Part shown: positions 1 through 19,398 of the stretch, in pieces
Layout of the letters: each line of letters begins with the position of its first letter
Numbering within the stretch: position 1 is the stretch's first letter
Source of the DNA: Tubulanus polymorphus
Lineage: Eukaryota > Animalia > Nemertea
Direction: 5' to 3'
Length of the DNA stretch: 64,000 bases
Assembly (NCBI RefSeq): GCF_964204645.1
Contig: NC_134030.1
Location: forward strand, 15,624,110-15,688,109
Made by a program: the position numbers and the translations under genes
Notes under the pieces: generated by a model
What the model was told of the DNA's origin: nothing
Database searches by the model: none
The model's input: only the letters and a program-made list of their open reading frames with translations

Positions 1-2
1 AA

Positions 3-2623
3 AAATATGATTACAAAAATAAAGTACCATTTGTAATATATGGAGATTTTGAATCATTAAATAAAGAATTAACAGATAAAGATAGAAAAGATATATATTA
101 TAAAAGAAAGAAATTAAATCTAATGAAAGTGATTATTCAGAAGAACCACCAAAAACAAATACTATTAAAAAGATTCATCAATCAGCTGCAGCTTTCGGGT
201 TATATATTAAATCTAATTATCCAGAACTAATTGAAAGTGAATATTATAATTACAGAAATGAAAATGTTATCAATCATTTTTGTGACTTATTAATTGAATA
301 TGAAATAAAATTTAATGAAAAGTTGAATAAAAATATAGAAATAATTATGACAGAAGAAGATAAAGAAGAATTTGAGTTTGCAGATAAATGTTATTATTGT
401 GAAAAGATATTTAATTATAAAGATAAAAAAGTAAGAGACCATGATCATTTGAATGGAAAGTTTAGAGGCGCTGCACATGAGAATTGTAACTTACAAGCTA
501 AGAAAATTAACTTTGTACCAGTTATATTTCATAACCTATCAGGATATGATGCACATTTATTTATCAAACAGCTATGTCATAAAATAGAAGAAATCAATAA
601 TGAAATAGAAATATTAAATTCAAATAGATCAAAAGATAAAATACCAACTTATAAATTTAGAATGTTAGCTAAAACATCTGAGAATTATATATCATTCCAA
701 TTTGGTTGTCTAAGATTTATAGATTCATATAGATTTTTAAATAGTTCATTAGATAACTTATCAAAATCATTAGTTGATGATGAATTGAAGATATTAAAAG
801 AATATTACCCAAATAATGATGATTTTCAATTAATGAGATATAAAGGCGCAATTCCATATTCTTTCAATAAAAATCATAATGATTTTAAAATAACTGAATT
901 ATTGAAAGAACAATTTTATGATGAATTAAAAAATGAATATGTTAAAGATGAAGTCTATAATAGAACATTGAATATTTGGAATCATTTCAAAATAGAAAAT
1001 CATGGGCAATTAGTAGATTTATATTTAAAATCAGATGTATTATTATTAACCGATATATTCGAAAGGTTTAGAGATGTAAACCTAAAATATTTCAATATTG
1101 ATCCTTGTCATTGTTATTCATCACCAGGATTAACATGGGATTGTGGATTAAAATTTACAGATATAAAAATGGATTTGTTAACAAATATAGATCAATTATT
1201 ATTATTTGAAAAATCTATAAGAGGAGGTGTTTCAGGTGTATTGGGTGATAGATATTTCAATGTAAATGATAATCCTGGATATAAATTATTATACATAGAT
1301 GCAAATAATCTTTATGGTTGGGCAATGATGGAACCACAACCTTATGGGATGTTTGAAATAACTGAAGTTTTACAAATTGATAAATTTGATTGGAAGAAAA
1401 GAATTCTAGATATTGCAGATGGTTCAGATACTGGTTACTTCTTTGTTGTAGATTTAGAATACCCTGAAAATATTAAATTCAAATCTAGAAATCTAGCATA
1501 TTGTCCCGAACATAAAACTGTTAAACATGAAGAATTATCAAATTATCAAAAAAGAATTAAACCCGATAATCATATTCATACTGAAAAGTTAATGGTAACT
1601 CAAGAAGATACATATAATTATGTAGTACATTATAGAATGTTGAAGTTTTATTTGAGACAAGGAATGATATTAAAAAAAGTACATAGATATATTTCATTCA
1701 GTCAATCTAAATGGTTAAAAAAATATATAGATTTTAATACTACACAGAGAACTAAATCTAAAACTGATTTTGAAAAAGATTTTTTTAAGTTAATGAATAA
1801 TGCATTCTATGGTAAGACTTGTGAAAATATTAGAAATAGAAATGATATTGAGTTAGTTAGTAATGGTAAAAGGATAAGGCATTTACAATCATATCCTAAG
1901 TTTATAGGTAACAGAATATTTGATGAAAATTTAGCTGCAGTTAAAATGAGGAGAACGTCTATTAAATTCAATAAACCTATATTTATTGGTTCGACTGTTT
2001 TAGAATTATCAAAGTTATTAATGTATAAATTTTACTATAACATATTACAACCCCATTTTGGAGAAAAGAATATAGAAATTCTATACTTTGATACAGATTC
2101 TTACATATTAAAGATAAAAACTGATAACATAACTGATGATTTAAAAACATTAAAACATCATTTTGATTTCAGTAACTATCCTAAAAATCATGAATTGTTT
2201 ACCAATGATAATAAAAAAGTTCCTGGGAAGTTTAAGGATGAATTAGGTGGTGAAGAAATGATAGAGTTCATTGGTATTAGATCTAAAATGTATAGTTATA
2301 AAACTAAAACTCATGAAGCTAAAAAGTTAAAAGGAATTACCAAAAGCGTTGTTGAAAAGAATATTAATTTCAAAGATTACATCAATTGTATATTTAATGA
2401 AGAAGTTAGAAAACATAAGATGAAATGTTTAAGATCTGAAGATCATGAAATGTATATTGAAGAAATAGAGAAGATAAGTTTGAATCCATTTGATGATAAA
2501 AGATATATTTTAGATGATGGAATCCACACAGTCGCCTATGGTTGCAATTTAGATGAATATATAAAATTCAAAAGAGAAGAAACAAAAGAAAATGAGATTA
2601 TGAAAAGGATTCTAACGTGTTAA
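3..2623 (+). CDS. polB: Protein-primed family B DNA polymerase (pPolB), 5' part outside window; frameshift near 118-121; EndoVII-like HNH domain inserted in exonuclease domain
   Basis: ExoI YGDFES (frame 3), ExoII FHNLSGYD, ExoIII YLKSD, palm DANNLY, KLMNNAFYGK, YFDTDS, KMY; CYYC..RDHDH..GKFRGAAH..CN insertion. Confidence 0.95.
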
Positions 2624-2651
2624 TCAATTTCAATAAAAATTTGTATAATAA

Positions 2652-2993
2652 ATGGAGAGTAAACAAGTACACAGTGAATTCTTAGATAGAATTAAAGATA
2701 CTTCAAGCGTCAAATCTGTAGATTATAAATTTAAAAAACTAACTGAGTTAACAATTCACAAGAAATATCTAATTACAAATATTGTTACAGTTACTAATAA
2801 ATATGGAGATAAATTAGTAATTCATTTAGAATATGAAGGATTAAAAGGAAATGAATATAAATTCAGAACTTATTTACCAGATAGATTTCATAGATTATCA
2901 AGTGAAGATCTAGAAGAATTATGTTCTGGAGATTTCTATTTCGTATACAAAGGTAAGAATGAAAAAGGGCACCATGAAATAGATTTCGAATAA
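2652..2993 (+). CDS. Small putative OB-fold / ssDNA-binding protein
   Basis: FKKLxEL..KY.I....TNKYG.K.V..L....TYLP.RF beta-rich pattern next to pol; function inferred. Confidence 0.45.
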   Translation: MESKQVHSEFLDRIKDTSSVKSVDYKFKKLTELTIHKKYLITNIVTVTNKYGDKLVIHLEYEGLKGNEYKFRTYLPDRFHRLSSEDLEELCSGDFYFVYKGKNEKGHHEIDFE

Positions 2994-3010
2994 GAAAATA
3001 TGTAAAATAA

Positions 3011-3755
3011 ATGGTAGAATTAAAAGAATACAGAATATTTGTTGATTCTAGAAAACTTACAAATTATAAATCACATAATTTATTAGTACAATTAGATAGA
3101 GAATTTAAGAATTGTATAGATTTAAAATTAGTAAATATAAGTTTATGTAATTCTTTTCATAATATATCGGATAAAAGTTTTGATCATAGAGACTTTTTAA
3201 TTCATATTAGAAATATAAATAAATGGTTTCAACTAATTTTAAAACCAGGATTATATAATTTAGATACATTAGCACAAGAAATTAATCGGAGAGCACGATT
3301 AAAACTTAAAAGTGAAGATAAATTTTCAATTAGATTTATAAAAAGTGATAGTTCTAATAAAATTAAAATAAAGTTAGATGATGAAAACAAACATGCATTT
3401 ATGGTAAGGAAACCTTTAGCTAAACTGTTAGGAATTAAACCACAAACTGTTACAGGAAACGTAGACGGTAATTCAAATATAATACCTTTTACACATTTTT
3501 ATATTTATTGCAATTTAATTGACCCAACAAAAACATTTGAAGCAACTAAAGATACAATTTGTAATTCTGGTTTATTAAATATTTTACCATTAAAAAATGT
3601 TAAACAATTTGGAACGCAAATAAATTATAATTTAACAGAATTGTATTCCTCAATTTAATAATTTTAAATTAGAAATAAGAAATCATAATGGATACTTAAT
3701 TGATTTGAATAACTTTCCTGTAATTTATGAATTAGTTATAAGATGTAAAGAGTAA
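3011..3755 (+). pseudogene. Minor capsid protein (penton, single jelly-roll), frameshifted near 3641
   Basis: IFVDS..., LxNISLxNSFHNI, FYIYCNLI, LLxILP; C-terminus FNNFKLEIRNHNGYLIDLNNFPV lies in another frame; copy D reads through (AECDFKPCIP), implying a ~14-nt deletion in A. Confidence 0.75.
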
Positions 3756-3772
3756 TTTTTTTCACTATATAA

Positions 3773-4120
3773 ATGAATATAACTGTTGGACCGAGTATAT
3801 GTTTTGGATTTGATTTTAAACGTGAGAAAGAAATGAAATTTAACATGAATGATGTAATAACACATATCAAAAATATTGCATTTTCTAATGAAACAACATT
3901 TGAGTATGAAACAACAATAGATAAAGAAACTTTAAATGTAGAAAAGATTACTGAGTCTTTAAGATTTTATGAATTAGATGAAGATTTTATCATCGATGAT
4001 ATTAAAAACATATTAACCAAAATATATGATAATCATAAAACTAGTAATGAAATAAATGTTGAATTAATCATAAATAAGTTAACTAAATATTTTGATGATA
4101 GTAATTTTTTTGATAAATAA
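3773..4120 (+). CDS. Conserved hypothetical protein (115 aa)
   Basis: Homolog at 52260-52601; TAAATG start. Confidence 0.75.
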   Translation: MNITVGPSICFGFDFKREKEMKFNMNDVITHIKNIAFSNETTFEYETTIDKETLNVEKITESLRFYELDEDFIIDDIKNILTKIYDNHKTSNEINVELIINKLTKYFDDSNFFDK

Positions 4121-4333
4121 ATGAGTGATAATAAGTGGATAATAACTGGATTATATAATGGCGCATTACTATCAGTTGGAACGGTTGGTTATTCAATGGT
4201 ATTAAAAAAAGTATTCAAAATGGGAAGTGTTAATGTTGATATAAATGATATTTTAAAGTTAACATTAGCAGTTACTTTATCTAATTTAACTATTGATTAT
4301 TTGGAAAAACAAAAATATATTCCTCCCATATAA
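4121..4333 (+). CDS. Small hydrophobic/membrane protein (70 aa)
   Basis: Two hydrophobic segments; homolog at 52035-52259. Confidence 0.7.
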   Translation: MSDNKWIITGLYNGALLSVGTVGYSMVLKKVFKMGSVNVDINDILKLTLAVTLSNLTIDYLEKQKYIPPI

Positions 4334-4357
4334 ATGCATAATTTTTTTGCTAAATAA

Positions 4358-4780
4358 ATGGCTTCTGCAATTATAACTATTATAGGATCAGCAATTGTTA
4401 ACGCTTTAGCATTTACTGGTGGTGGTTATTTATTTAAACATATTGATAAAAATAGTTCATTAGGAGAACAAAGAAGACATAACTTAGCGTTAGAGAAATA
4501 CAATAAAGCTGCAGAAGAATATAGAGAAAAGAGGCAAAACTATATGGATTACATCAATAAAGAATTATATGATCAGAAGATTTCACATAGAGATTTTCAA
4601 TCAGTTGATGATGCAATGAGTTTATATAACGCAGTAACAAATAAAGAAAAATTACATCTATACAAACCTAAATTATCAGATTATTATACCCCAAGTAAAG
4701 AACAACAGAAATATGAAATAATATGGATTTTAGGTGGAACAGTTATTGTTATATTTGTTGCTTATAAATTTACTAATTAG
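4358..4780 (+). CDS. Membrane-associated protein (N-terminal hydrophobic/amphipathic helix, EQRRHN motif, C-terminal TM)
   Basis: ASAIITIIGSAIVNALAFTGG; IIWILGGTVIVIFVAY; homolog in D. Confidence 0.75.
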   Translation: MASAIITIIGSAIVNALAFTGGGYLFKHIDKNSSLGEQRRHNLALEKYNKAAEEYREKRQNYMDYINKELYDQKISHRDFQSVDDAMSLYNAVTNKEKLHLYKPKLSDYYTPSKEQQKYEIIWILGGTVIVIFVAYKFTN

Positions 4781-4799
4781 TAATTTTTATTCTAAATAA

Positions 4800-5234
4800 A
4801 TGGAAGATAAAGTTGATAGTATTGATATTATTCCTCATGATATAAATAAAACTAAATTAAAAACATATTTAGAAAAACAAATATTAGAATTTGAAAGTGA
4901 CTTAAAGATAAAAAAGAAAAAATATTTAAAAAGTAAAATTATATATTATTTGATTATAAGTGGTTCGGTTACAATTAGTTCTGTAATAACATTTCTAGCA
5001 ATATTCAGCCCATTAACACCTTTAGCTATATCAATTGGTGTGTTAGGATTAAGTTCAAGTGTTTTAACTGGTATCAGTTCAAAATTAAATATAAAAAGTA
5101 ATAAAGAAAAAATAAAATCTTATATAAAAGAAATTAATAAATTAAAGAACACACTAGATTATATAATAAGTTTAAATGGTCATATAACAGTTGAAGAACA
5201 AGATAAATTATTAAAAGAATTAATAAATTATTAA
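4800..5234 (+). CDS. Two-TM protein flanked by coiled coils (144 aa)
   Basis: Central ~45-aa hydrophobic hairpin; intact homolog at 51134-51568. Confidence 0.78.
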   Translation: MEDKVDSIDIIPHDINKTKLKTYLEKQILEFESDLKIKKKKYLKSKIIYYLIISGSVTISSVITFLAIFSPLTPLAISIGVLGLSSSVLTGISSKLNIKSNKEKIKSYIKEINKLKNTLDYIISLNGHITVEEQDKLLKELINY

Positions 5235-5250
5235 TTTTTTAGTTATATAA

Positions 5251-6579
5251 ATGGGGTTTCCAAAAGCTTTCCAATATAATAAATCAATTAAATATAATAT
5301 TCCGGCAATAGATTTTAAGAAAAATATTATATATAGAAATATAGTTTTAAATTCATTAACTAATTTAGAAATTTATGTTACTGAATCACAGTTTTTTATT
5401 TCTAAAATGGAAAATATATTTAATACATATGAAGTTACTTTTACTCGAGATGAATATCATATATATAAAGTAAAATCTAATATGAAATATTGGCAGAATC
5501 AATTAAATTTTGCTGTTTATTGTGCAACAACAGGATGTGGAATTAGTTGGAATGATCATTTAAATAACTTAGATAAAAATTTGAAGTATTCTGATTTAAA
5601 ATTAATTCACACAATATTTAGATTTCACTCATATTTTCAAATCAGAATAATATTAAATGAATTAGAATGTCCTTTACCCGGGTCTAAATATTTTAAAGAA
5701 TTAGATAATAATATTAATATATCCAAGTTTTATAAAATATGTAATGAATTTAATATAAATATTAATTCCGATTTCAGAGCGCATGGTAAATTACAAGGTG
5801 TTAGTGAACAGTATGAAATAAAAAGAATTGATTATATGCATAGAATTGGAGCTTATCATAATTATAAAATTGATAATAATAATGGTTGGGTTAATTTCAT
5901 TTTAGAAAATGGTGAAGGTTTTACAAAATCAGGTATACAAAGAATAAATCAATCTATTAGAATTTATTGGATATGTATTTTAGGTGCTCAAGTTGAAACA
6001 AGATCACCGATAATTGGAAATTTGAATACATCATTCGATACACAAAAACAATTTAAAGTTTTATTTGAAGATTCAATTCATAATGATAAAAATAGATCGA
6101 TTCCAGAAAACATTATAAGATATCAAAATTATTTAGATAAATCTCATGTAAGACTTAATTATTGTATAGGCCCTGATCTATTAATTATTTCTAATGATTT
6201 AGTATTAAAGATGGGAAATATAATTGGTTATAATAATCTAATTAAAACTGCAACAATAAATAATTCATTTGGGTTAAATGATATAAATAAAAAGATTATT
6301 ACTGCTCCAAAATTAATGGAAGGTGAAAAAAATAAAAAACACATTCAATCAACTGAAACTAAAACTAAGAATATTAAATTAAATAATGATTCTAAAATAA
6401 AAGATTACAATACATCAGAAAATGGTGCCGTACGGCACCCACACGGTGATAATAGAACTGATAAAATTCAACATGATATAATTAAACTAAATGATGATAA
6501 TAAATCCCATGAAAATACTAAATTAGCTATAACTTGTATAGGAATTGTAATCGGAGGAATATTATATTTTAAATTTTAA
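5251..6579 (+). CDS. 442-aa conserved protein with C-terminal TM anchor
   Basis: WQNQLNFAVYCATTGCG, FRFHxYFQ motifs; LAITCIGIVIGGILYF tail; homolog in D. Confidence 0.8.
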   Translation: MGFPKAFQYNKSIKYNIPAIDFKKNIIYRNIVLNSLTNLEIYVTESQFFISKMENIFNTYEVTFTRDEYHIYKVKSNMKYWQNQLNFAVYCATTGCGISWNDHLNNLDKNLKYSDLKLIHTIFRFHSYFQIRIILNELECPLPGSKYFKELDNNINISKFYKICNEFNININSDFRAHGKLQGVSEQYEIKRIDYMHRIGAYHNYKIDNNNGWVNFILENGEGFTKSGIQRINQSIRIYWICILGAQVETRSPIIGNLNTSFDTQKQFKVLFEDSIHNDKNRSIPENIIRYQNYLDKSHVRLNYCIGPDLLIISNDLVLKMGNIIGYNNLIKTATINNSFGLNDINKKIITAPKLMEGEKNKKHIQSTETKTKNIKLNNDSKIKDYNTSENGAVRHPHGDNRTDKIQHDIIKLNDDNKSHENTKLAITCIGIVIGGILYFKF

Positions 6580-6595
6580 TTTTTTTATTATGTAA

Positions 6596-8056
6596 ATGGA
6601 TGTAGAAGGTGGAGAAGATATTCCATTGGATGACATGGGAAATAATAATGAAGGATATATTGATGATGATTATAATGATGCAAAAACTAATATTGATAAT
6701 GATGATGAATCAGCATATAATTCTAATTTAGCAGATAGTGGTTCTAAAGCCCCATCAACAGATGAATTTGATAGAAGAACTAGATCGAGAATAAATCCTG
6801 AAAATGAAAATCAAGGTTTAAAAAAGGAAGATTTAGAAAATATTGGATTTATATATAAGTTTCAAGATGTATTTAAAGATTCTGGATATAATATAAATTA
6901 CAGAGGCGCCAGACTTTTAGTAAATGATTTAAAATATTTAGATGGTGAATATTATTATAAATTGAAAGATGATTATTATATTAATATCTCTTATAAAACT
7001 CAAAATATAATATTAGCAGAATCAACTTTGCTTAAGTTAGAACCAGATAGAATTAAGAGAATAAGTATTAGTAATGAAATAACTGATGTTACACAAGAAG
7101 AAAGAGATAATAATAGAAAAGAATTCAAACAAAGAATTAATGAATTATTTGAAACAATCGATAATAATTTAGAAACAGAAACAACTTCTGAACAGAATAT
7201 AACTTCCAAAACTAGTAAACTTAAATCAAACACTGAAGTTCAAACTGAAAAACTTTTACCGAATGGATTACTTGATGCAACAGATCAAGAAATAGAAGCT
7301 TTAAGTATGTTTTCTAAAAAAACAATTAGAGAAATAATAAGTATACGAAATGACGCCGATAAAATTGCTCGCGAAAAACATATTAGATATAATAAAATTA
7401 AACCTTTAGAAAATAAATTATTTGACACCAGAAAAGAATTAGAACAATTAAAATTAGATAGAGAATTTAAAATTATTGAAGAAATTGAATTTAAAAAAAG
7501 AAATGCATATTTAGAAAAAGAAATTGATGATTTAAAATATAACATAGAATTTCAGAAAGAAAAAATGAAATTATTATTAAAATCATATGATTATTGTATC
7601 AATAGATTAAAAGTTGTTGTTAAAGAGTTAATACTAAAACCAAATTCTGAAATATCATTAAAAGACAGAATAAAATTATTATTTAAGTTTGAAGGAATAA
7701 CAGTTCTTTCAATTCTAACAGCTGTAACTATGTTATTTACAACAATTGGTTTAGCAATATCAAATGCTTTGAAATCTACTCCCACTCCCAATAAACCAGA
7801 TAAACCTCCAGGTAATAATTCTATACAAGATAAAGTTAAAGATGGTTTAAAGAAATTAGCAAAATATTTATGGGAACTATCTAAAAAATCTGCTGCAGCT
7901 TTACCAGGAGTTATTGCTTCAATTGTTGGTTTTATATTGAAATCTGCAGGAAACATTATTAACTTTGCTGCTGAACATATTATTTTATTTTTAATTACAG
8001 TTGTAAGTGCTATTATTTTTGGGTTAGTGAATATGATATCAAAAAATATCAAGTAA
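6596..8056 (+). CDS. 486-aa acidic/coiled-coil protein with multi-helix hydrophobic C-terminus
   Basis: Acidic N-terminus, heptad region, three hydrophobic segments; homologs in B and D. Confidence 0.8.
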   Translation: MDVEGGEDIPLDDMGNNNEGYIDDDYNDAKTNIDNDDESAYNSNLADSGSKAPSTDEFDRRTRSRINPENENQGLKKEDLENIGFIYKFQDVFKDSGYNINYRGARLLVNDLKYLDGEYYYKLKDDYYINISYKTQNIILAESTLLKLEPDRIKRISISNEITDVTQEERDNNRKEFKQRINELFETIDNNLETETTSEQNITSKTSKLKSNTEVQTEKLLPNGLLDATDQEIEALSMFSKKTIREIISIRNDADKIAREKHIRYNKIKPLENKLFDTRKELEQLKLDREFKIIEEIEFKKRNAYLEKEIDDLKYNIEFQKEKMKLLLKSYDYCINRLKVVVKELILKPNSEISLKDRIKLLFKFEGITVLSILTAVTMLFTTIGLAISNALKSTPTPNKPDKPPGNNSIQDKVKDGLKKLAKYLWELSKKSAAALPGVIASIVGFILKSAGNIINFAAEHIILFLITVVSAIIFGLVNMISKNIK

Positions 8057-8101
8057 ACCATGATATCAAAAAATAAATAATTAATTTTTTTTGTTAAATA
8101 A

Positions 8102-9349
8102 ATGAGTGGGAGTTATATAAGTCCTTCGAAGAATCATAGAATATCTAATGCTATTAAAGCAGAAAGATCACATCATATAATTACTCATAACCCTTCAAAT
8201 ATTAATCCCGATGAAACTTTATATGTGAGGATTCCTCGATTAACACAAAATACTTTTTATGTTCCAAATAGTATTTATTTATCAGCCGATATAAAAGTAA
8301 TCGGTAATAATAATAATTATGTTGTTGATAATGTTGGAAGATATTTGATTAAAAAGTTAACAATAAAGATTGGTCCGGAAACAGTTTTCTCATTAGATGA
8401 TTATAATTTATTTTCACATTATAAAGATTTATGGTTAACTAAAGAAAATAGAAATAATATGATATTTCAAGGAATTCAATCAGAAAACCAAAATAAATTA
8501 AGATCAGAAGCTAATAGCGCAATATTAACAAATGATGTAGATAAATTGATAAAAAGTATATATGGAAGCAAATATAAAATTCCATTAGACTTTGAATTGA
8601 TAAATAATAATGCACCTTTATATAAATACGCAATTCAAGAAGATATTATATTTGAGATAACATTTGCTCCTGTAAATGAAATTGTATTATCTAGCGTTAA
8701 TAAAGATATGAGTTATAAATTATCGAATATATGTTTAGAATATGATACAGTAACTGATGAAAATATTTCAAGTATAATTCAAACTAAATATAATCAAGGA
8801 TTTTCATTATTATATGATTATATTGATAAATTTAAAACTGTAACTATTAATGCAAATGATGAAATAATTAATGAGAATATTAACTTCCCTAGAAGATCTA
8901 TTAAAGGTATATTAATATTTTTTACCATTGGAACGTATACTAATGGCGCAATAAATGTTGATAATTATTATAATCCTGAAATAACAAAAGTAGAAATAAC
9001 TATCGAAGGTATAGCGAATAAAATATTTTGTCAAGGAATGAGAATGATTGATCAATGGGTAGAAATTAAAAAACATTTTATGAATGAAAAAGTGAAATCA
9101 TCTGAAAATTGTAATATTAATCAAATTGATTATTATACCGGTAATAAATATGCATTATGGTTAGATTTTAGAACAACAGAAGATAATTCATTACATGGTT
9201 CTGGAAAAAAACTACAAAATACAAAAGATGGAATACAATTATTCATGACAAAGAATAAAGGAATCAAAAATTTTAAAATGCACATTTATATTATATCTGA
9301 CGCGCAATTAAATATTGTAAATTCACAATTAGATAGTGTTATGTATTAA
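8102..9349 (+). CDS. Major capsid protein (double jelly-roll)
   Basis: 415 aa beta-rich; THNPS.I....LYVRIP.L....YVP.S, GRxLIKK, ICLEYD, ALWLDFRT..D..LHGSG; size and position fit Polinton-like MCP. Confidence 0.8.
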   Translation: MSGSYISPSKNHRISNAIKAERSHHIITHNPSNINPDETLYVRIPRLTQNTFYVPNSIYLSADIKVIGNNNNYVVDNVGRYLIKKLTIKIGPETVFSLDDYNLFSHYKDLWLTKENRNNMIFQGIQSENQNKLRSEANSAILTNDVDKLIKSIYGSKYKIPLDFELINNNAPLYKYAIQEDIIFEITFAPVNEIVLSSVNKDMSYKLSNICLEYDTVTDENISSIIQTKYNQGFSLLYDYIDKFKTVTINANDEIINENINFPRRSIKGILIFFTIGTYTNGAINVDNYYNPEITKVEITIEGIANKIFCQGMRMIDQWVEIKKHFMNEKVKSSENCNINQIDYYTGNKYALWLDFRTTEDNSLHGSGKKLQNTKDGIQLFMTKNKGIKNFKMHIYIISDAQLNIVNSQLDSVMY

Positions 9350-9381
9350 AATTTTAACTTTAATAAAAATATATATAATAA

Positions 9382-10407
9382 ATGGAAGGAGGTAAAGTAT
9401 ATGAAAGAATCAAAGCTGATAAAGAAATCAATGATAATTTGTATTATGTAATACCTTATAAAAGAATAAATGAATATATTGGAACATTTTTATTAAATGA
9501 ATTAAATCAATACAAAGAATATTTAATTGAACGTAATAATAATAAAAGTGGTGTTGTTAATAATAGTGTAATTGATAATAATGTAATACCTACTACATCT
9601 GTAATACCTACTACTACATCTGTAATACCTACTATATCTGTAATACCTACTATATCTGTAATACCTACTACATCTGTAATACCCACTACATCTGTAATAC
9701 CCTCTACATCAAATAATGTAATACCCACTACATCTGTAATACCCTCTACATCAAATAATGTAATACCTTCTACATCTAATAATAAAATAATATTAGATGT
9801 TAGTGAAAATAGAAATTATTGTGGTTATTGTAATGGTGAATTTTCAAACGCTCCATCAAATTGGAATAAACATATGAATACAAATTCACATATTACTAAT
9901 GTTATAGAACGTGTTGGTTTAAGAGAATTTATAGAACACCCATTTAGATATGTTACAAAATTTGTTTCAAATAAAAAAGTAAATGGTAAAGAATTATATG
10001 AAGATTTTTTATTAACAACACCTAATAAAGATGAATTAGATTTAACCGATGCTAATGAAATATTAGGATCAAATATTGTAAATGAAATATTAGGAGCAAA
10101 CACTAATAAAGATGATAATGAAAATGATACCATACAGCACCCACATGGTGATATAGTTACAGATAAGCATATTGATAATAAAGATTCTATAAAACTTAAA
10201 GTAGAAAATAATAATAAATTTGATTGGATGAATAAGCATAACAATGAAACAACTATTGATGATTTGGTAAAAAAGGTGAAAAAGGTGAAAAATAATAAAC
10301 CAATTATTTATGAAGATACGGTAGAGCATTTGAATAAATTGTTAGGGTCTGAAAGTGATTATAGTGAAAGTGATTCAGAAAGTGATTATCTAACACTCAA
10401 AAAGTAA
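9382..10407 (+). CDS. Low-complexity protein with VIPTTS repeats and C2H2-type zinc finger
   Basis: CGYC...KHMNTNSH; TAAATG start. Confidence 0.7.
   Translation: MEGGKVYERIKADKEINDNLYYVIPYKRINEYIGTFLLNELNQYKEYLIERNNNKSGVVNNSVIDNNVIPTTSVIPTTTSVIPTISVIPTISVIPTTSVIPTTSVIPSTSNNVIPTTSVIPSTSNNVIPSTSNNKIILDVSENRNYCGYCNGEFSNAPSNWNKHMNTNSHITNVIERVGLREFIEHPFRYVTKFVSNKKVNGKELYEDFLLTTPNKDELDLTDANEILGSNIVNEILGANTNKDDNENDTIQHPHGDIVTDKHIDNKDSIKLKVENNNKFDWMNKHNNETTIDDLVKKVKKVKNNKPIIYEDTVEHLNKLLGSESDYSESDSESDYLTLKK
9583..9777 (+). repeat. Coding 18-bp tandem repeat (GTAATACCYACTACATCT)
   Basis: About ten imperfect units encoding VIPTTS/VIPSTS. Confidence 0.9.
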
Positions 10408-10459
10408 TAAAGGTTGAAAATTGTATAAAATAATAGTAAATAAAAAAGGGGTTTTTAAG

Positions 10460-10620
10460 TATTAAGGTATCTAATAGGGTATTAGGGTATGTATCAGGTA
10501 TTAGGGTATCTAATAGGGTATCAGGTATTAGGGTATCAGGTATTAGGGTATCTAATGGGGTATTAGGTATTAGGGTATCTAATGGGGTATTAGGTATTAG
10601 GGTATCTAATACATAGGTAT
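10460..10620. repeat. GGTATTAG/GGTATC repeats with TATTAG-GGTAT-CTAATA mini-hairpins at the convergence of the two gene blocks
   Basis: Seen directly; shorter version at 19853-19960 in B. Confidence 0.85.
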
Positions 10621-10628
10621 ACAAATAG

Positions 10629-11243
10629 TTATTTTATAAATTTATATTCATATGGAAATTGTAATCTCATAAGTAATTTGGAACCTTTATTATTCTTTAA
10701 TTTATTCATATATTCATCATGTAATTCAGGAGGTATAATTTGATTTTCTTCCAATGATTGTTGCATAGATTTTCTATCTTTGTTGTAGAATAAAACTAGA
10801 AATCTTATATTCTCTCTAAAATCTTTCACAATTGAATTATATTTCTGATTTAAAACCCAAGTTGTTATCCCAAAATGTCTACCAGAGAAAGCTAAATAAC
10901 ATAACTCACTTTCTCTAATTTTAGAATCATGTAAATTTGCGCAATCATCGATAATAAATAATGTATTAGATCCTTTATAAATATCTAATGCAATTTTTAT
11001 ACAATTATCTAAATTATCTTTCACTGTTTTAGAATTTAATATAATAAACTTTTTATCTTTAAAAACTATATCTCTATTATACGTTTCATTCATTTCATAA
11101 GTTGGGCAGAATAATATTATATTATCAAAATGATTCTTATAAATAGTTTCTAATAAATATAATATGAAGTGTGTTTTACCACAATTTGTAACTCCAGTTA
11201 TTAACATATTATGAGGTTCAAATATAAATAAATCTTTATTCAT
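10629..11243 (-). CDS. Genome-packaging ATPase (A32/FtsK-HerA-like)
   Basis: Walker A GVTNCGKT, Walker B LFIIDD, GRH motif, Q sensor, REN. Confidence 0.93.
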   Translation of the reverse strand: MNKDLFIFEPHNMLITGVTNCGKTHFILYLLETIYKNHFDNIILFCPTYEMNETYNRDIVFKDKKFIILNSKTVKDNLDNCIKIALDIYKGSNTLFIIDDCANLHDSKIRESELCYLAFSGRHFGITTWVLNQKYNSIVKDFRENIRFLVLFYNKDRKSMQQSLEENQIIPPELHDEYMNKLKNNKGSKLLMRLQFPYEYKFIK

Positions 11244-12324
11244 TTATTCTTTTAATTTTACTAGATAAAATCCATTCATTAAATTTATCATCATATCCTT
11301 TATATTTCACCAAAGAATACTTTTTTCCTTTAAGAGTTTTTGTTTTCAATACTTTTTCTATTTTGTATTCTATTTCATCTGGATTTGGTACTAATGATAA
11401 TTCTTGTTCATAAAAATAACCTAATATTTCTTCATCTTTTAAATCAAACAATTTATAAACAAATGGTTTAGTTAATATTATCTTTTTAATTTTAAATATT
11501 TCTTCTGTAAAATTAGGGGTATAACCTTTATAAAATGTATTTCGATATTTAGAAATTCTAACATGTTGTCCTATTTTAAATTTAGGTTCTCCAAAATCAT
11601 GTGTAACAAACGCACCATATAAATTATTCCAAACTATTTCTGAATTTTCTTCTTTTCTAGCTTGTATAGGTTTCATATTTATAGAACTATGTTTAGAATT
11701 ATTATAACCTTTCACTAAATCATCTAACACATCGATATATTTGTATGTTTCATTAGCGGTGAAATATTTCCACATTCTAGTTTTCAATGTTTTATTAAAT
11801 CTTTCTATAACAGATGCTTTTTTATCTGAATGTGTTGAAAAATATTCTACATCGTTATCAGTTAATAGTTTTTTAAAATGTTTGTTATAAAATTCTTTAC
11901 CTTCATCAAATTGTATCTTATCTGGAATAGCTTCTTTAAATATTAATTTGAAAGAATTTGTAACTTCTATACCAGTTTTATTTTTAATCGGGATACTCCA
12001 TGCGTATCTACTGAATATATCTATAACATTTAGTATCCAAAAATATCTTTTGTTATATTCTTCTAAGTTCTTCATGTCAATTAAATCTGCTTGCCATTGT
12101 TGATCGATATATGAAACCATTACTTTTCTTGTTAAATATTTTTTATCCATCTTTTTATGAATTTGATATGTGGGTTGATTTTGTAACCATGATTTTAATT
12201 CACTATATTTTATATTGCTATTATCAGATTTAATTTTATTCCATAATTCTGAAACGTTAGAAAATGATACTTCACTTTCTGGGTTGTAATATAACGCTCT
12301 TAAATATTGTTCTTTTTTCATCAT
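11236..12324 (-). CDS. int: Retroviral-like (rve) integrase with C-terminal chromodomain
   Basis: WQADLIDM, VIDIFSRYAW, FDEGKEF, ERFNKTLK (DDE); YKIEKVL..VKYKGY..FNEWI chromodomain. Confidence 0.95.
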   Translation of the reverse strand: MMKKEQYLRALYYNPESEVSFSNVSELWNKIKSDNSNIKYSELKSWLQNQPTYQIHKKMDKKYLTRKVMVSYIDQQWQADLIDMKNLEEYNKRYFWILNVIDIFSRYAWSIPIKNKTGIEVTNSFKLIFKEAIPDKIQFDEGKEFYNKHFKKLLTDNDVEYFSTHSDKKASVIERFNKTLKTRMWKYFTANETYKYIDVLDDLVKGYNNSKHSSINMKPIQARKEENSEIVWNNLYGAFVTHDFGEPKFKIGQHVRISKYRNTFYKGYTPNFTEEIFKIKKIILTKPFVYKLFDLKDEEILGYFYEQELSLVPNPDEIEYKIEKVLKTKTLKGKKYSLVKYKGYDDKFNEWILSSKIKRINE

Positions 12325-12327
12325 ATT

Positions 12328-12711
12328 TTAATCCATTAATAATATTTTAGATTTATTTTCATTTGATTTATGATTTGACTTATTTTCTGGTATAATAGGT
12401 TTATTGTCATTGGAATCATCTTTATCATCAGATTTGAATTTTGATTTATATATTACACCGGATAATATAATAACTGTTACTAATCCAATTGTAATATATA
12501 AGTAATTATTTCTTCCACTATTAGAATTAGATGGATTATTATTTGAATCAATACTACCGTGTGGGTGCCGTACGGCATCATCGGGTGATTCATTTATATC
12601 AGTTAATTTCTTTTTCTTAGCTTTTTTTAATTCTGAAGATCTTTTACCTAATTCTCTTGCCCATTTAATTTGTTTCTCTGATCTAGCCTTTTTCTTAACT
12701 CCATCACTCAT
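12328..12711 (-). CDS. Basic single-TM protein (127 aa)
   Basis: Lys/Arg-rich N-terminus, YLYITIGLVTVIILSGVIY TM. Confidence 0.7.
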   Translation of the reverse strand: MSDGVKKKARSEKQIKWARELGKRSSELKKAKKKKLTDINESPDDAVRHPHGSIDSNNNPSNSNSGRNNYLYITIGLVTVIILSGVIYKSKFKSDDKDDSNDNKPIIPENKSNHKSNENKSKILLMD

Positions 12712-13309
12712 TTATTTTAGTTAATTTTTGTTCTGATTCATTTTCTGTTTCACTGTTTGGTTGTAGTACATCTGTTTCGTTCTTACCTGATTTATATTCC
12801 ATAGGCTTGATATTCGAAAATGTTATAACTCCAGTAGAAATTAATGTCATAACCGATCCTAATTGAAATAAAGTATATCCAACCCATTTTTGTAATTCAG
12901 TCATAACTAAATAGTCATTTTTCAAATCATTATATAATTTATTTTCATCATCAATTGGTATTAACTGGTTACATAACTTAGAATAACATTTGACAATACC
13001 ATCTGAAATAGAATCATTTATTCTAGCTAATCGAGCTTCTTCATAAATCTTAAAATATTTTATTACTTTTTCTTTATTCATATTATCTAATTCTTGAAAA
13101 GTTATTGTTTTACCAATAAACTCTTTAGTTTTTCCACTCGCAATCAATAGTTCTAGATGATGCTTACAATATAAATAGTATTCATAATCAATATTACTAT
13201 CAATTTTATTATCACATTTAGTTGCCACATTATCATTATCATCTGTTAGACCTAAATCTTCCAAAGTTTTTTCAACTTTAATATTATTCTTATTCGATTT
13301 CTTTGACAT
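12704..13309 (-). CDS. Conserved hypothetical protein (201 aa)
   Basis: Close homolog at 25345-25907. Confidence 0.75.
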   Translation of the reverse strand: MSKKSNKNNIKVEKTLEDLGLTDDNDNVATKCDNKIDSNIDYEYYLYCKHHLELLIASGKTKEFIGKTITFQELDNMNKEKVIKYFKIYEEARLARINDSISDGIVKCYSKLCNQLIPIDDENKLYNDLKNDYLVMTELQKWVGYTLFQLGSVMTLISTGVITFSNIKPMEYKSGKNETDVLQPNSETENESEQKLTKINE

Positions 13310-13558
13310 TTATATTAGAGAAAAAAAGCAAAAAAAATATTATAAGTATTCTTCAAATGATACTAGATAGTTAAAGTTAAAGAACTCTAGTATTGACTAC
13401 TGATACTAGCTATTTGAATTTATAGAATTTCTATTCGGATCTATTCAAAATATAAAGTATTCTCTTTTTGAAAAGAAAATATTAAAAATATAATAGAATT
13501 CGCTAGCTAGTTGAAGTTATTGTTTTTTAAATACTTTTTATTTAAAATCTATTATTCT

Positions 13559-14221
13559 TTAACCACTCATTAAAGACTCAACGTATTGTTCATTATGTGT
13601 TGAATTCCATAATTCAATAAATTTTTTTACTTTTTCCAGTTGATTCAAATATAACTGTAAATCTATTTTATTAGATTTGATTTGATTTTCTTTCTTTTCT
13701 AAAGGTCTTAGATTCTTCCAATTCCAAATAAGTTTTTTATTGTATTCATCGTTCATGTTAAATTTAGATATTGGTAACACGTGATCAATATGGTAATAAT
13801 CCCCATAATTATATATATTCATTTTATCATCGAATTGAAATATAATCCATGATTTGAGAAATTCATCTGAACAACCCAACAAATTAGATAGTGTTTCTGA
13901 ATGTGTTTCTTTGTTGAATAATTGTGTTAATCTAGACCGTAAACATTGTTTCAATCTAAAATTAAGATCTGTTTGATATCTTTCTCTCATATATTCTGTC
14001 ATATAATCATTATAAGATTCTCTATTATCTTCTCGATATTGTTTAGTATATAGTTTAATGCAAGTTTTACAGTAATATTGAAAACCATCTTTGCTAGTCT
14101 TACGCTTACTAAATTCTGTTAATGATTTATCTAATTCACATTTAGAACACTTCTTGTAATATATGTTTATAACGCCAGTGTTATTTGTAATATTGATAGT
14201 TTGTGGTTGTTCTGGTTCCAT
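13559..14221 (-). CDS. HNH endonuclease with N-terminal CxxC..CxxC zinc ribbon
   Basis: KKCSKC...KDG...CKTC; LLGCS; HIDHVLP; NLRPL...EN..KSNK. Confidence 0.85.
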   Translation of the reverse strand: MEPEQPQTINITNNTGVINIYYKKCSKCELDKSLTEFSKRKTSKDGFQYYCKTCIKLYTKQYREDNRESYNDYMTEYMRERYQTDLNFRLKQCLRSRLTQLFNKETHSETLSNLLGCSDEFLKSWIIFQFDDKMNIYNYGDYYHIDHVLPISKFNMNDEYNKKLIWNWKNLRPLEKKENQIKSNKIDLQLYLNQLEKVKKFIELWNSTHNEQYVESLMSG

Positions 14222-14416
14222 TTATTATACATATTTTTTTACTAAATTGGTTAATATTTTATAATCCTCTTCCATTTCTTCAACCAACGTCATCCTTTTT
14301 CATTCCTCGCTGCTTTTGGATAAGTCAGTTTCAATTCCTTGATATCTAAATAATACCACTGGGCAAAAACGCTCGGGTGAGAGCGAGTTGGCTTCTGCGC
14401 ATGCGCTCATTATAAT

Positions 14417-15345
14417 TGTCAAACAATTTATCATTTTAACTGTCAAACAATTTATCATTTTAACTGTCAAACAATTTATCATTTCAACTGTCAAACAATT
14501 TATCATTTTAACTGTCAAACAATTTATCATTTTAACTGTCAAACAATTTATCATTTCAACTGTCAAACAATTTATCATTTTAACTGTCAAACAATTTATC
14601 ATTTCAACTGTCAAACAATTTATCATTTCAACTGTCAAACAATTTATCATTTTAACTGTCAAACAATTTATCATTTCAACTGTCAAACAATTTATCATTT
14701 CAACTGTCAAAAAATTTATCATTTTAACTGTCAAACAATTTATCATTTCAACTGTTAAACAATTTATCATTTCAACTGTCAAACAATTTATCATTTTAAC
14801 TGCTAAACAATTTATCATTTCAACTGTCTTATCATTTCAACTGTTAAACAATTTATCATTTTAACTGTCAAACAATTTATCATTTCAACTGTCAAACAAT
14901 TTATCATTTCAACTGTCAAACAATTTATCATTTTAACTGTCAAACAATTTATCATTTTAACTGTCAAACAATTTATCATTTTAACTGTCAAACAATTTAT
15001 CATTTCAACTGTCAAACAATTTATCATTTTAACTGTCAAACAATTTATCATTTCAACTGTCAAACAATTTATCATTTCAACTGTCAAACAATTTATCATT
15101 TCAACTGTCAAACAATTTATCATTTCAACTGTCAAACAATTTATCATTTCAACTGTCAAACAATTTATCATTTTAACTGTCAAACAATTTATCATTTCAA
15201 CTGTCAAACAATTTATCATTTCAACTGTCAAACAATTTATCATTTTAACTGTCAAACAATTTATCATTTCAACTGTCAAACAATTTATCATTTCAACTGT
15301 CAAACAATTTATCATTTTAACTGTCAAACAATTTATCATTTCAAC
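14417..15345. repeat. 24-bp tandem array ACTGTCAAACAATTTATCATTT(T/C)A, ~39 units
   Basis: Seen directly; one truncated unit near 14828. Confidence 0.97.
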
Positions 15346-15401
15346 AGTCTATTAGATATTTAAATCATTTAACTCAATTCAATAATTATAATGTAGAATT
15401 G

Positions 15402-16023
15402 TTACTCTTTACGCCAGTTTTTATATTTAATTGTTTCATAATGCTTTGATTTATGTGATTTTAAATATTTACCTCCGCAATAACAATGCACTTTTTCATT
15501 AGGATTGAATTTTCTAAATTCATCATCTAAATTACATTGAACTGCAATATCTTTATAAGAATTATTATTATCTAATTCACATTGAATTCCAATATTTGAT
15601 GAATTTTCATTATAGATAATTTGTTTATTATCAAAATTGAAATAATATAATTGTCTTTTTTCAATTCTTAAGTTAATCAAATCATTGTAATCTTTTGAAA
15701 GTATTATATCATCATTTCTTTCATTGAAAGGAGTTTTAAGAATATTAATTATGTTTTCATCTAAAGTTCCTTTAAAATTTAAAACTGTATTGAATACTTT
15801 AGGACTTTTAACACCATTATCAAAAGTATCTACTAGTTCAGTAATTAAATATGTTTCATTTGATAATATTTGATTAATCATAGTTATGTTATCGATTTTA
15901 TAATACCTTGCGGACACTAAATTTGTTGCTGAAATATAATTTTTAATGTAAAACTGTGAAAATGATTTATTGGTTTCTTTTATTTCGATTTTAAAGTTGG
16001 GTTCTTCTTCTTCTGTCTTCATT
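15402..16023 (-). CDS. Hypothetical protein with C-terminal CxC..H..H zinc finger (start probably ATG at 16023)
   Basis: HCYCGGKYLKSHKSKH; homolog 33349-33993 begins at the equivalent Met. Confidence 0.75.
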
Positions 16024-16130
16024 TTACTAACAAAACTTTTATTAAAATGAATCCAACGCATATAAATATAAATATTCAATGATTTATGAATTATTTCACT
16101 CACACTTTACTCACACTTTTTTCTAACGCG

Positions 16131-16180
16131 TAAAAATGAAAAATAAATTCGAGCGTGTGAGAATTTATTTTTCATTTTTA
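16131..16180. repeat. Perfect 20-bp-arm subterminal palindrome, loop GAGCGTGTGA
   Basis: TAAAAATGAAAAATAAATTC / GAATTTATTTTTCATTTTTA. Confidence 0.9.
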
Positions 16181-16291
16181 TGAGTTTTGCGAGTAATTCA
16201 AGTAGAAATTGTAATTATTTTTATGTTTTTCATTTTTTACGAGCTCGACCGTTCGACCTTTGATCTGAAAGCCTATTACCCCTATTACTAG

Positions 16292-19200
16292 CCTGTTATA
16301 AGTGATGAACAACCACCTGATTTTGATGAAATAAGTTTTAGTAATGATAATAAAACAGGCTGTTCGAATATCACGGATACCGGATACCGGACACCTAAAT
16401 ACCGGATACCGGATACCCGAGATTGCGGAGTATATAGCGCATCGGGTCTAATGGTCAGCGGTAAACGGCAGTTCGTGTGAGATCTAGTAGAAGAATAAAA
16501 GGCCTATATTATTTTCATAATACATCGGTATATGCTTTTCAAGTACAGTAGCATACAAATGTTACCGGTATAGACAATTCAAACAGATTTATTGCTTCCG
16601 AGTAATAACACGATTACATACGACAGTCACGGTAACAAACAGTAGACAGAAAATATTTTTTATCATTCTGCCAATTTGAACGGATTACCGAATAGACCGT
16701 TTTGGGCAGAGCTACTGTACAATACAAAATATCTTTATCATTCAGTTTCACGAAGAAGGCCATTTTAATAAAGTTAAGCGTTATTGACGATCTATATTTT
16801 CATGATCTTTAGAATTAAATTTAACATCAGGGTAAATAGTCACTTAGAGGTATGGTAGGTACCGGTATTTGACGAACTGATTTTTGAAGGTTATACCAAA
16901 ACAATTGGTGTCCAGGGGTGTTGATTTTCGACGATCGCCATGGACTCAATAATTTCATTTTTAGGGACATCGTGATTGAGAATGAAATGTAGACATATCG
17001 TCCAATAAATAGAATATACCGAATATTCTCCGTCATAAAATAAGAAAACGAATTTTAATTCTTTGTTTGTAAATACTTGTATTTCATTGGTGTTCAGCTC
17101 AACTATTCCATCGTAAATCAACAAATACAAAATGTAGAGATCTTTAAAACAAACTTTATTAGAAGAAACTTTAGAACTGCCAGACTCGCTTATGGCCTTC
17201 AAACTTGAGATATAGGGCCTAGCAGTACTCAGCCCTATTAATGAAAGGATTTTACAGAAAAACCAAAAGGGCCACCAATACATATCCATCACCAGTGAAG
17301 TAAGATAATAAAAAATGAATATAACGTTTAACTTCACCTAACCAAAGAAAAACAGTATTCAGAAAAAAATATGTATAATATTGAGATCGATGATGACACT
17401 TAAAACGTGAGAGAAGGCTGTAATCAGGCTAGCATTAAGACAAATAAGTTGGTTAGCCGCTGTAACAATTTGACATAAATGATTGTATGTCGCGGCAGTA
17501 CTACTTACAACAACACGGAAACGAATCCTTAGACCCGATGCGCTATATACTCCGCAATCTCGAGTATCCGGTATTTAGGTGTCCGGTATCCGGTATCCGT
17601 GATATTCGAACAGCCAATAAAACAGCATATAATAATAATTTAAATGATGAAGATGATTCTAGTGGGCCTATATTATATGATTATGATGAATTTAAAGATG
17701 ATACTGAAACACGCAAAAAATTTGAAGAATATATGACAACTCACGAAAGGGGAGTTATTAAACCCGTAACATTTAGAAAAGATTTAATGAATAGATTAGA
17801 AAGAACAAAAAACCCTGAATTGAAAGAAGATTTATATTTAATGAAAACTAGAATAACAGATACAATTGTTAACGAATTATTACCAAAAGTTGTAATAGAT
17901 GAAATTGATACAGAAGGTGTTGTAGAACAAATTGAAAAAGATGATCCACATTTCATGAATAATTTAGAATTTGAAAATGATGCATGGTATTATAATCTTG
18001 AATTAAATGGTAAAACTGAATCAATACAATTATCTAGAATGGGTCAAGAAAATATTGAACCTGGAATGCGTGCAAGATCTTCAATTGAACGTTCAAAAGG
18101 TGGTAGAGAATTTCTCAGAATTATATGGAATGCACTCGATAGAATAAATGAAGAAGAACCAATTCCTAAAATTGATATAAACAAACATTCACCATTTAAA
18201 AATCCAAATTTAAATCTTACTTATGTTGATCCAGAAATGGAAGAGTATGATGATCGATTAGATAAATTAAGATCTTCAACACCCGAAACATCGAGAAGAG
18301 ATATTCAACAAATTGATAATGATTAGAGTCAATTACAATTAGTAAAACATTTTGATAGCATGTTACATACAATTCATTCATTTGAAGAAGAGATGAAAGG
18401 TGCTTTAGATACACCCGGTGCTTAAACTGAAATAAATCGAATACAATCTTTACTAGAAAAAGGATTATTTGATTTAAATGATGATGAATTAGAAGCATTT
18501 CCTGAACAAGCGCGTAGAGAAATTAAAGGTATGCAAGAATCAGCTGATAAAATTGCGCATGAAAAAAGTAAAAGAGATATTAAAATTAGATTTTTAGAAA
18601 AAGATAGAACTGATAAAATTAAAGAAATAGAACAAGTAAAATTAGATAGAGATAGTAAAGTTATTGAAGAAATTGAATTTAAAAAAACGAAATGCATATT
18701 TAGAAAAAGAAAAAGATGATTTAGAATATAACATAGAATTACAGAAAGAAGAAATTAAATTATTATTAAAATCATCTGATAAAAATAAAGAAATAGAACA
18801 ATTAAAGTCTGATTTAGAACGACAAGTAATTGATGAAATAGAATATAGGCAAAAAGAATTACGTTTAGAAAAAGAAATTAATAATTTAGAAGTACAGAAA
18901 GAAGAAATTAAATTATTATTAAAATCATATGATTATAATATTAATAGATTAAAAGTTATTTTTAAAGATTTGTTGATAAAACCAGATTCTAAAATATCAT
19001 TGAAAGATAGAATAAAATTATTATTTAAGTTTGAAGGAATAACAATTCTTTCAATTCTAACAGCTGTAACTATGTTATTTACAACAATTGATTTAGCAAT
19101 ATCAAATTCATTAAAATCTATACCTACTCCCAATAAACCGGATAAACCCCCGAATGATAATAATTCTATACAAGATAAAGTTAAAGATGGTTTAAAGAAA

Positions 19201-19398
19201 TTAGCAAAATATTTATGGGAACTATCTAAAAAATCTGCTGCAGCATTACCCGGAGTTATAGCATCAATTGTTGGTTTTATATTGAAATCTGCTGGGAATA
19301 TTCTTAACTTTGCTGCTGAACATATTATTTTATTTTCAATTACAGTTGTAAGTGCAATTATTTTTGGGTTAGTGAATATGATATCAAAAAATAAATAA
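16292..19398 (+). pseudogene. Homolog of the 486-aa coiled-coil/TM gene, split by the MITE, with stops/frameshift and an internal duplication
   Basis: PVISDEQPPDFDEISFSNDNKT|AYNNNL across the MITE; C-terminus near-identical to 6596-8056. Confidence 0.8.
16358..17615. mobile_element. Non-autonomous DNA transposon, MuDR/Mutator-like
   Basis: ~90-bp TIRs GGCTGTTCGAATATCACGGATACC...; 9-bp TSD AATAAAACA (16349-16357, 17616-17624); GGATACC subrepeats. Confidence 0.85.

Follow-up and report, generated by a model that had tools for sequence, protein, structure and literature searches.

Poxvirus-Like Start Signals on a Polinton of Tubulanus polymorphus, a Candidate Virophage-Like Parasite of a Poxvirus-Type Virus

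The Element and Its Start Signal

It is an open question whether the Polintons of animals live as viruses in their own right, as transposons or as satellites of larger viruses, and for most of them neither a virion nor a helper is known. A 64,000-nt stretch of the genome of the nemertean Tubulanus polymorphus (contig NC_134030.1, positions 15,624,110 to 15,688,109; hereafter the window, in whose coordinates all positions are given) carries one such element, copy A, at 1-16289. Its left part extends beyond the window, its right end is a terminal motif at 16266-16289 that is present four times in the window, and its DNA is AT-rich (GC about 0.23, ~77% AT). Copy A is a Polinton/Maverick by its gene set: a Pfam scan of the window open reading frames (ORFs) identified pPolB (PF03175, E 3.6e-16), an RVE integrase with a chromodomain (PF00665, E 1e-8) and the A32 packaging ATPase (PF04665, E 2.7e-12), and the 415-aa capsid protein adopts a double jelly roll (DJR) fold whose model (pLDDT 86) has the capsid of the chlorella virus PBCV-1 as its best Foldseek match (E 4.7e-17). 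An adenain-like maturation protease gave no Pfam match among the copy A ORFs within the window, several of which are without assignment.

Among the 16 copy A genes whose start lies inside the window, 14 begin in TAAATG, and the 14 ATGs that an initial annotation of this DNA had placed in that context are indeed all preceded by TAA. The two others are near misses, with TAAAAT-ATG at the integrase (12324) and TAAAATG at the terminal gene if this starts at 16022. Chance would give 4-9%, as estimated from TAA before out-of-frame ATGs (24/270 in the sense strand, 10/225 in the other), TAA within upstream spacers (53/640) and random DNA of matched AT content, read at the ATG that first follows a stop codon (1114/15571), and the probability of at least 14/16 is P <= 2e-13 under each of these four nulls. 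The enrichment over an AT background, whose lack had been named as grounds for refutation, is therefore present. TAA is the stop codon of the upstream gene in only 1/14 cases, the ORF at 4121. Other AT-rich viral contigs showed the hexamer at 33/364 and 16/215 starts, though they had been fetched for one motif match.

In the other copies of the window, 14/18 starts are TAAATG, three are TAAAATG or TAAAAATG and one (53250) is TAAATAATG, the start at 63736 being a duplicate of that at 57901. The exceptions that had been listed (an integrase lacking TAAATG, a T-run on the copy D polymerase, A-rich signals on the copy A penton and ATPase) are as stated.

Two Classes of Upstream Sequence

The upstream geometry was scored on 65 TAAATG starts from the window and the clade loci described below, a set that includes orthologues and is hence not independent. 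Position -12 is T in 60/65 starts, -13 is T in 77% and -18 is A in 75%, whereas -11 to -7 are variable, which is how a DNA-binding site would be laid out one turn of the helix upstream. On this frame two classes can be recognized. A T-run begins at -16/-17 in the genes at 3773, 4121, 4358, 4800, 5251, 6596 and 8102, and an A-core (RTAAAA at -18 to -21) precedes 2652, 9382, 11243, 14221 and 53319 and, by a looser pattern, 16022, 27654, 33349 and 59843. The T-run occurs in 31/65 starts (shuffle mean 4.6, max 12) and the A-core in 13/65 (shuffle mean 2.1, max 8), with 21/65 matching neither strict definition; the two definitions overlap in position, and a Fisher test between the classes was discarded. 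A-core genes have A at -13 in 8/13 cases and retain the T at -12, and initiators with an extra A were found in 4/8 A-core versus 0/20 T-run genes of the window (three independent genes).

The membrane/capsid block, in which the label membrane protein is tentative, carries the T-run in 7/7 genes in copy A and in locus L003 alike. These results bear out the initial annotation in placing T-runs upstream of the membrane and capsid genes, including the gene embedded at 4121, and an A-rich core on non-structural genes, which is real at 2652, 9382, 14221 and 53319 and appears at others by the looser pattern. The A-core of the zinc-finger ORF at 9382 is retained in L001, L002 and L005. Moreover, in L001, L010, L011, L046 and L076, where divergent neighbours face each other head to head across 15-30 nt, TAAATG stands at the start of each of the two. 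Counts of the T5NT early terminator in coding strands were uninformative.

In pairs of orthologous promoters selected from the TAAATG starts, -3 to -1 are identical in 22/22 and -12 in 20/22, against 10-11/22 for -9 to -5. The capsids of these elements are only 51-76% identical, so that the fixation of -3 to -1 and -12 indicates selection acting through the whole radiation.

Distribution of the Signal in the Lineage

Searching with a capsid alignment yielded 169 metagenome loci, of which the best 80 were taken, and a quick maximum likelihood tree of 57 rows with a midpoint root placed the element in a 15-row capsid clade (SH-aLRT 99). Conserved genes, chosen by homology, start at TAAATG in 33/39 cases in this clade versus 0/147 for the same gene set in a 35-row sister clade, some loci being near duplicates and the first-ATG calls being liable to miss a true start. 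Seven AT-rich sister loci (GC 0.26-0.38) gave 0/21, and clade loci of GC 0.31-0.44 gave 14/17, demonstrating that the motif is independent of AT content. In the sisters, -3 is A or G in 111/147 starts, whereas the clade motif puts T there, contrary to the Kozak context; a motif search of 180 sister ORFs returned no fixed start-proximal motif, only the ordinary A at -3. As a separate observation, genes of the AT-rich sisters L017, L020, L023, L061, L081 and L082 often start at TA(T)AAAAATG-like contexts in which the A runs are longer; this may be a further variant of the promoter or no more than an A-rich context for translation.

The long-branch loci L072, L076, L037, L046, L049, L078 and L079 also carry the motif, as does the viral contig L206 (GC 0.38), in which 6/6 starts are TAAATG, polymerase and integrase included; in this group the T at -12 is weaker (13/21). 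Contrarily, the motif is absent from L015, L016, L056, L057 and L063, which lie near the clade, and the trait may therefore have been gained or lost more than once. It is also absent from three genome_contigs loci. A search of IMG/VR yielded no relatives of the capsid, the ATPase or the VLTF3-like protein, and its polymerase search gave three loci, L206 with the motif and L204 and L205 without it.

A VLTF3-Like Gene

Copy D contains a broken gene for a zinc-finger and VLTF3-like protein. Its last piece (54226-54561) matches PF04947 Pox_VLTF3 at 27 bits against a cut-off of 25 (Atlas 0.94), and intact homologues exist (P0148, P0149), one of which has its start at L003:11054, again with this A-core promoter in front, and faces a deoxynucleoside kinase gene (L003:10343-10981, minus strand) head to head. 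A domain model of P0148 (pLDDT 66) has cowpox VLTF3 as its best Foldseek match (E 9.2e-4, TM 0.63); VLTF3 proteins occupy most top rows, with cowpox and entomopoxvirus entries at ranks 1, 4 and 9. Two protein searches with the VLTF3-like piece gave no match, and no sequence bridge to VLTF3 was found in them. The gene is called VLTF3-like with modest confidence. In vaccinia, A2L (VLTF3) and A32L are intermediate genes, and the A-rich promoters of the VLTF3-like and A32 genes here predict the same class for them. VLTF3-like genes have been described from some Polinton-like viruses, according to parts of PMC8502044 and 10.1101/2022.07.28.501842.

Features of the Window

The genes of copy A and the remaining copies are listed in Table 1.

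Table 1. Coordinates and start signals of the element copies and their genes in the window.
Feature	Position	Strand	Start signal and remarks
Copy A, pPolB	347-2623	+	5' part broken and continuing outside the window; start not scorable
Copy A, 113-aa ORF, putatively SSB-like	2630-2993 (ATG 2652)	+	A-core + TAAATG
Copy A, 215-aa ORF, putatively penton-like	2990-3658 (ATG 3011)	+	A-rich promoter + TAAATG; shorter at its end than the copy D homologue
Copy A, 115-aa ORF	3752-4120 (ATG 3773)	+	T-run + TAAATG
Copy A, 70-aa hydrophobic ORF	4100-4333 (ATG 4121)	+	T-run within 3' end of upstream ORF
Copy A, 140-aa hydrophobic ORF	4337-4780 (ATG 4358)	+	T-run + TAAATG; conserved in 28/80 loci
Copy A, 144-aa two-helix membrane ORF	4779-5234 (ATG 4800)	+	T-run + TAAATG
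Copy A, 442-aa conserved ORF	5230-6579 (ATG 5251)	+	T-run + TAAATG
Copy A, 486-aa conserved ORF	6575-8056 (ATG 6596)	+	T-run + TAAATG
Copy A, DJR major capsid protein	8081-9349 (ATG 8102)	+	T-run + TAAATG
Copy A, 341-aa zinc-finger/repeat ORF	9360-10407 (ATG 9382)	+	A-core + TAAATG
Copy A, A32 packaging ATPase	10629-11265 (ATG 11243)	-	A-rich promoter + TAAATG within integrase 3' end
Copy A, RVE integrase + chromodomain	11236-12324	-	TAAAAT-ATG, not TAAATG
Copy A, 127-aa ORF	12328-12733 (ATG 12711)	-	TAAATG; promoter within upstream ORF; neither strict class
Copy A, 201-aa conserved ORF	12704-13331 (ATG 13309)	-	T-run + TAAATG
Copy A, 220-aa HNH-like ORF	13559-14245 (ATG 14221)	-	A-core + TAAATG
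Copy A, terminal ORF	15402-16047	-	A-core + TAAAATG; likely start 16022 (inferred)
Copy A, three copies of AAAAATGAAAAA	16132-16237		Near right end of copy A, two as palindrome
Copy B, fragment	18459-21160		Starts 19420, 20578 and 21155 in TAAATG
Copy C, fragment	25343-28118	-	25907 TAAATG + T-run; 27654 TAAAATG + A-core
Decayed copy fragment	33319-34029
Copy D, decayed	48091-57925	-	Seven TAAATG T-run starts in structural block; 57901 TAAATG + T-run
Copy D, broken zinc-finger + VLTF3-like gene	53295-54564 (ATG 53319)	+	A-core + TAAATG

The HNH label comes from the homologue L001:5568, which gives a weak HNH match. At the AAAAATGAAAAA sites an A-tract is interrupted by TG, resembling poxvirus early promoters; they could be origin or end-binding sites instead. 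In copy A, 39 copies of a 24-bp unit (14417-15349) are inserted between the HNH-like and terminal genes, and G-rich 27-bp repeats lie between the converging zinc-finger and ATPase genes (10441-10610, and again at 19836-19962). L001, L002 and L005 have other, partly palindromic repeats between these two genes, and a terminator or origin function is possible for the repeats at this place.

Most copies in the window are broken, and pieces of Gypsy and BEL/Pao retrotransposons surround the decayed ones, BEL/Pao being a pointer to an animal host. From one DNA run with the same species label, 61,119 reads map to 1-14250 and are mostly 90-99% alike, indicating that the family has many diverged copies (the depth yields no copy number). 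The end of copy C is a 186-nt near-perfect palindrome (27933-28118; fold z -22.5) bounded by two opposed terminal motifs, and may represent either a hairpin at a terminus or two ends joined to each other. Its ORF at 26637-26996 (minus strand), after the HNH-like gene, scores Atlas 0.94 to unnamed bacterial clusters and 0.92 to phage translation repressors and has no Pfam match. A 1826-nt inverted duplication (57637-59462 and 62175-64000) is 100% identical and is either very recent or an assembly artefact. The capsid relatives P0046 (54% identity) and P0125-P0132 are filed as Bartonella proteins, probably through host-derived contamination. Rfam gave no match, and PDB sequence searches with two unknown ORFs returned none of significance.

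Probable Transcription by a Poxvirus-Type Helper

TAAATG together with its T-run or A-core is likely to be a promoter, since the signal is specific to the lineage, independent of AT content, contrary to the Kozak context at -3, fixed in geometry at -12 and -18, shared by the two members of head-to-head pairs and similar to the promoters of vaccinia. The element is thus probably transcribed by the post-replicative machinery of a co-infecting poxvirus-type virus, as a virophage-like parasite. The initial annotation had likewise proposed a pox-like or other nucleocytoplasmic large DNA virus (NCLDV) as helper; the promoter part of that proposal has gained strong comparative support, while no helper was found.

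In the proposed mechanism, integrated copies would be silent in the host nucleus, and helper infection would bring element DNA to the helper's post-replicative transcription machinery. The helper polymerase would start in TAAA and slip on three template Ts, and the resulting poly(A) leader would replace the missing 5' untranslated region (UTR). Intermediate factors would activate the A-core genes (the VLTF3-like factor, the zinc-finger proteins and perhaps the ATPase), and late factors would activate those with a T-run (membrane proteins, capsid). In copies that have one, the VLTF3-like protein of the element would strengthen late transcription or redirect it. A nuclear copy would first have to meet a cytoplasmic polymerase; by analogy, mavirus and its helper, Cafeteria roenbergensis virus (CroV), are a precedent that reactivation can happen. 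Vaccinia factories replicate foreign plasmid DNA too (PMC1079961).

Several points weigh against this proposal. Motif scans of IMG/VR found no poxvirus-like helper among the matches listed, and two contig sets labelled with this species, of which one is presumed to be RNA, contain almost nothing on the element, which is evidence neither way. Neither the window nor the clade ORFs scanned showed an RNA polymerase subunit, the left end of copy A lying outside; combined with a helper-type motif on most genes, this is also what characterizes a virophage-like satellite. TAAATG marks 70/202 ORF starts in iridovirus-like loci as well, and by itself the hexamer is not specific to poxviruses. The likeness to vaccinia is judged from promoters as papers describe them, and the element's capsid gene has a T-run whereas D13L, the capsid homologue of vaccinia, is an intermediate gene. 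The capsid tree excluded 24/80 loci because their capsid ORF was too short. Head-to-head gaps of 12-50 nt also occur in sister elements without the motif; hence the argument that spacers of ~15-45 nt exclude ordinary RNA polymerase II (Pol II) units loses force. In copy A, neighbouring genes on one strand are separated by -8 to 45 nt, apart from a spacer of 114 nt before 3773 and from the long gaps that occur towards the right end.

The staged cascade fares similarly. It agrees with the membrane/capsid block, yet the class switches between orthologues for 2652, 3773, 3011, 14221 and 57901 versus 59843, and replication-type genes carry a T-run (the deoxynucleoside kinase in L003, the zinc-finger ORF before the polymerase at 57901, the L001 integrase). 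The A-core of the ATPase sits in integrase coding sequence, which may constrain it. The link of class to function is firm only for the membrane/capsid block and is otherwise loose. For the VLTF3-like piece, the Atlas recognition of 1973 is below the 2300 mark, the whole P0148 and P0149 proteins have no PF04947 match, other NCLDV VLTF3s score near the poxvirus ones, and the P0148 model gives weak cyclin/TFIIB folds against PDB (Z 6.2 at most).

Host Pol II might instead read the motif in the nucleus, directed by the element's VLTF3-like (TFIIB-like) factor, and a helper would be unneeded. Such a gene is present in copy D and L003, the element integrates, with deep coverage by DNA reads and many diverged copies, and mriyaviruses have retained VLTF2/VLTF3 although they possess no RNA polymerase, their replication being assumed to be nuclear (in parts of PMC11253617). 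This is nevertheless unlikely: copy A has a different gene at the position of the factor and 0/79 other capsid loci match it (most of them short), the factor's own gene lies behind the same promoter type, and a start in TAAA leaves almost no 5' UTR without slippage, which passages of PMC6211774 document for the polymerases of poxviruses and yeast virus-like elements. A slightly weaker candidate is a helper that is not a poxvirus relative, being another large DNA virus with its own polymerase, either iridovirus-like or asfarvirus-like. The iridovirus-like loci mentioned above (L230-L246, labelled from gene content) number 17 and belong to MSV199-rich viruses that carry RPB2, PolB and D5 genes, and 18/48 clade starts read TATAAATG, which contains the late initiator TATA of African swine fever virus (ASFV) (passages of PMC7163114). 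The signals are not the same, however, as the distinct TAAATG starts of the iridovirus-like loci read AATAAATG in 67/69 cases with T at -12 in 29/69, compared with 21/48 and 43/48 in the clade (Fisher P 1e-7), and the ASFV late motif is of variable spacing according to the same passages. As an observation in its own right, ~35% of ORFs in these iridovirus-like genomes start at AATAAATG, and the motif is absent from the review passages of PMC5294985.

It is improbable that the promoters merely survive from a time when the element depended on a helper and that present copies spread or decay as ordinary nuclear transposons. Broken copies prevail in the window and the reads are mostly 90-99% alike, but the identity of -3 to -1 and -12 across the orthologous pairs, set against that of -9 to -5 and the divergence of the capsids, speaks for selection throughout the radiation. 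Least probable of all, and very doubtful, is a motif of RNA-level or compositional nature, which might be an A-rich context for translation, the junction of a stop with a start, a poly(A) signal that overlaps the start or an acceptor for trans-splicing. AT makes up about 77% of the DNA, TAA is a stop codon, and 33/65 starts read AATAAATG, which contains AATAAA. Against these stand the single upstream stop among the 14 genes and the head-to-head pairs, which have no upstream gene end; AG occurs within -12 to -4 in only 7/65 starts, leaving no splice-acceptor AG; and both the AT-rich sisters, with their ordinary A at -3 and no fixed motif, and the other AT-rich viral contigs lack or seldom show the hexamer.

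If transcription by a poxvirus-type helper is correct, the virophage way of life would extend to integrated elements of animals, and poxvirus relatives would be expected in hosts where none are known. A lineage-wide and easily scored promoter signature splits one Polinton family in two, with one branch seemingly wired to a helper and the other seemingly transcribed by the host, and it names the type of helper to seek. More tentatively, and with rather more doubt than trust, this animal Polinton lineage may consist of virophages that parasitize poxvirus-type viruses and have become endogenous, expressing their genes in an intermediate and a late step and having captured a late transcription factor, whereby their promoters would record an undiscovered poxvirus-like group in invertebrate hosts and the integrated copies perhaps serve as an inducible defence like mavirus.

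Comparison with Known Systems

According to passages of PMC11980589, the late promoters of vaccinia consist of TAAATG and a conserved T that lies ten bases upstream in the company of further Ts, and its intermediate promoters of TAAA, which TG follows in some cases, and an A/T-rich stretch 15-19 bases upstream. The element resembles the former in its TAAAT(G) over the start codon, its T-rich upstream sequence and its T at -12, and the latter in its A-core and variable TAAA initiator; vaccinia intermediate promoters have no T at the tenth position, whereas the A-core genes here retain theirs at -12. The element also differs from vaccinia in having no RNA polymerase and in using such promoters for nearly all of its genes, replication included. 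The poxvirus polymerase contacts TAAA directly (in part of PMC12917281), and many gene entries for the deepest fish poxvirus bear a TAAATG mark (in part of PMC4542343).

In mavirus and Gezel-14T, dependence on a helper is marked by promoters shared with it. Nuclear mavirus stays silent up to the point of infection by CroV, whose late motif it shares (passages of PMC8547959). Mavirus and the endogenous mavirus-like elements (EMALEs) with CroV, and Gezel-14T with Phaeocystis globosa virus (PgV), resemble the present element in having the helper's promoter motif upstream of small-virus genes. Their hosts are protists, their helpers are of mimivirus type and their motifs are TCTA or AAAATTGA, and helper and reactivation have been shown by experiment, whereas the element here is known from sequence alone. 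The yeast virus-like elements pGKL1/2 are likewise pPolB elements with a TAAAN initiator, which yields 5' poly(A) leaders; they are linear, with their own polymerase, no capsid and an upstream element like poxvirus early promoters (passages of PMC6211774).

With other Mavericks/Polintons (Polintoviricetes; adintoviruses) the element shares pPolB, the RVE integrase, the A32-like ATPase and the DJR capsid, a size of ~16 kb or more, integration and many copies, and it differs by the lineage-wide poxvirus-type start signal and the VLTF3-like gene of some copies. The study by Starrett et al. contains no promoter analysis, nor the word 'promoter'. Similar in proposed life style are AHEV_PLV1/2 and CBEV_PLV1, Polinton-like viruses found by Barth et al. 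(2024) in entomopoxvirus occlusion bodies, which also have small Polinton-like genomes and were proposed as poxvirus parasites (parts of PMC11296320). According to the same parts, these viruses differ from the element in having been found with their helper and in lacking the RVE integrase; they encode a protease, and their capsids measure 366-372 aa. Term searches of that paper returned no mention of promoters, motifs or transcription. Literature linking TAAATG starts to Polintons was not found among top-ranked results, a coverage that takes in neither subscription papers nor preprint supplements. Poxvirus-associated Polinton-like viruses were thus already known, and what appears new is the link of poxvirus-type TAAATG promoters to Polintons.

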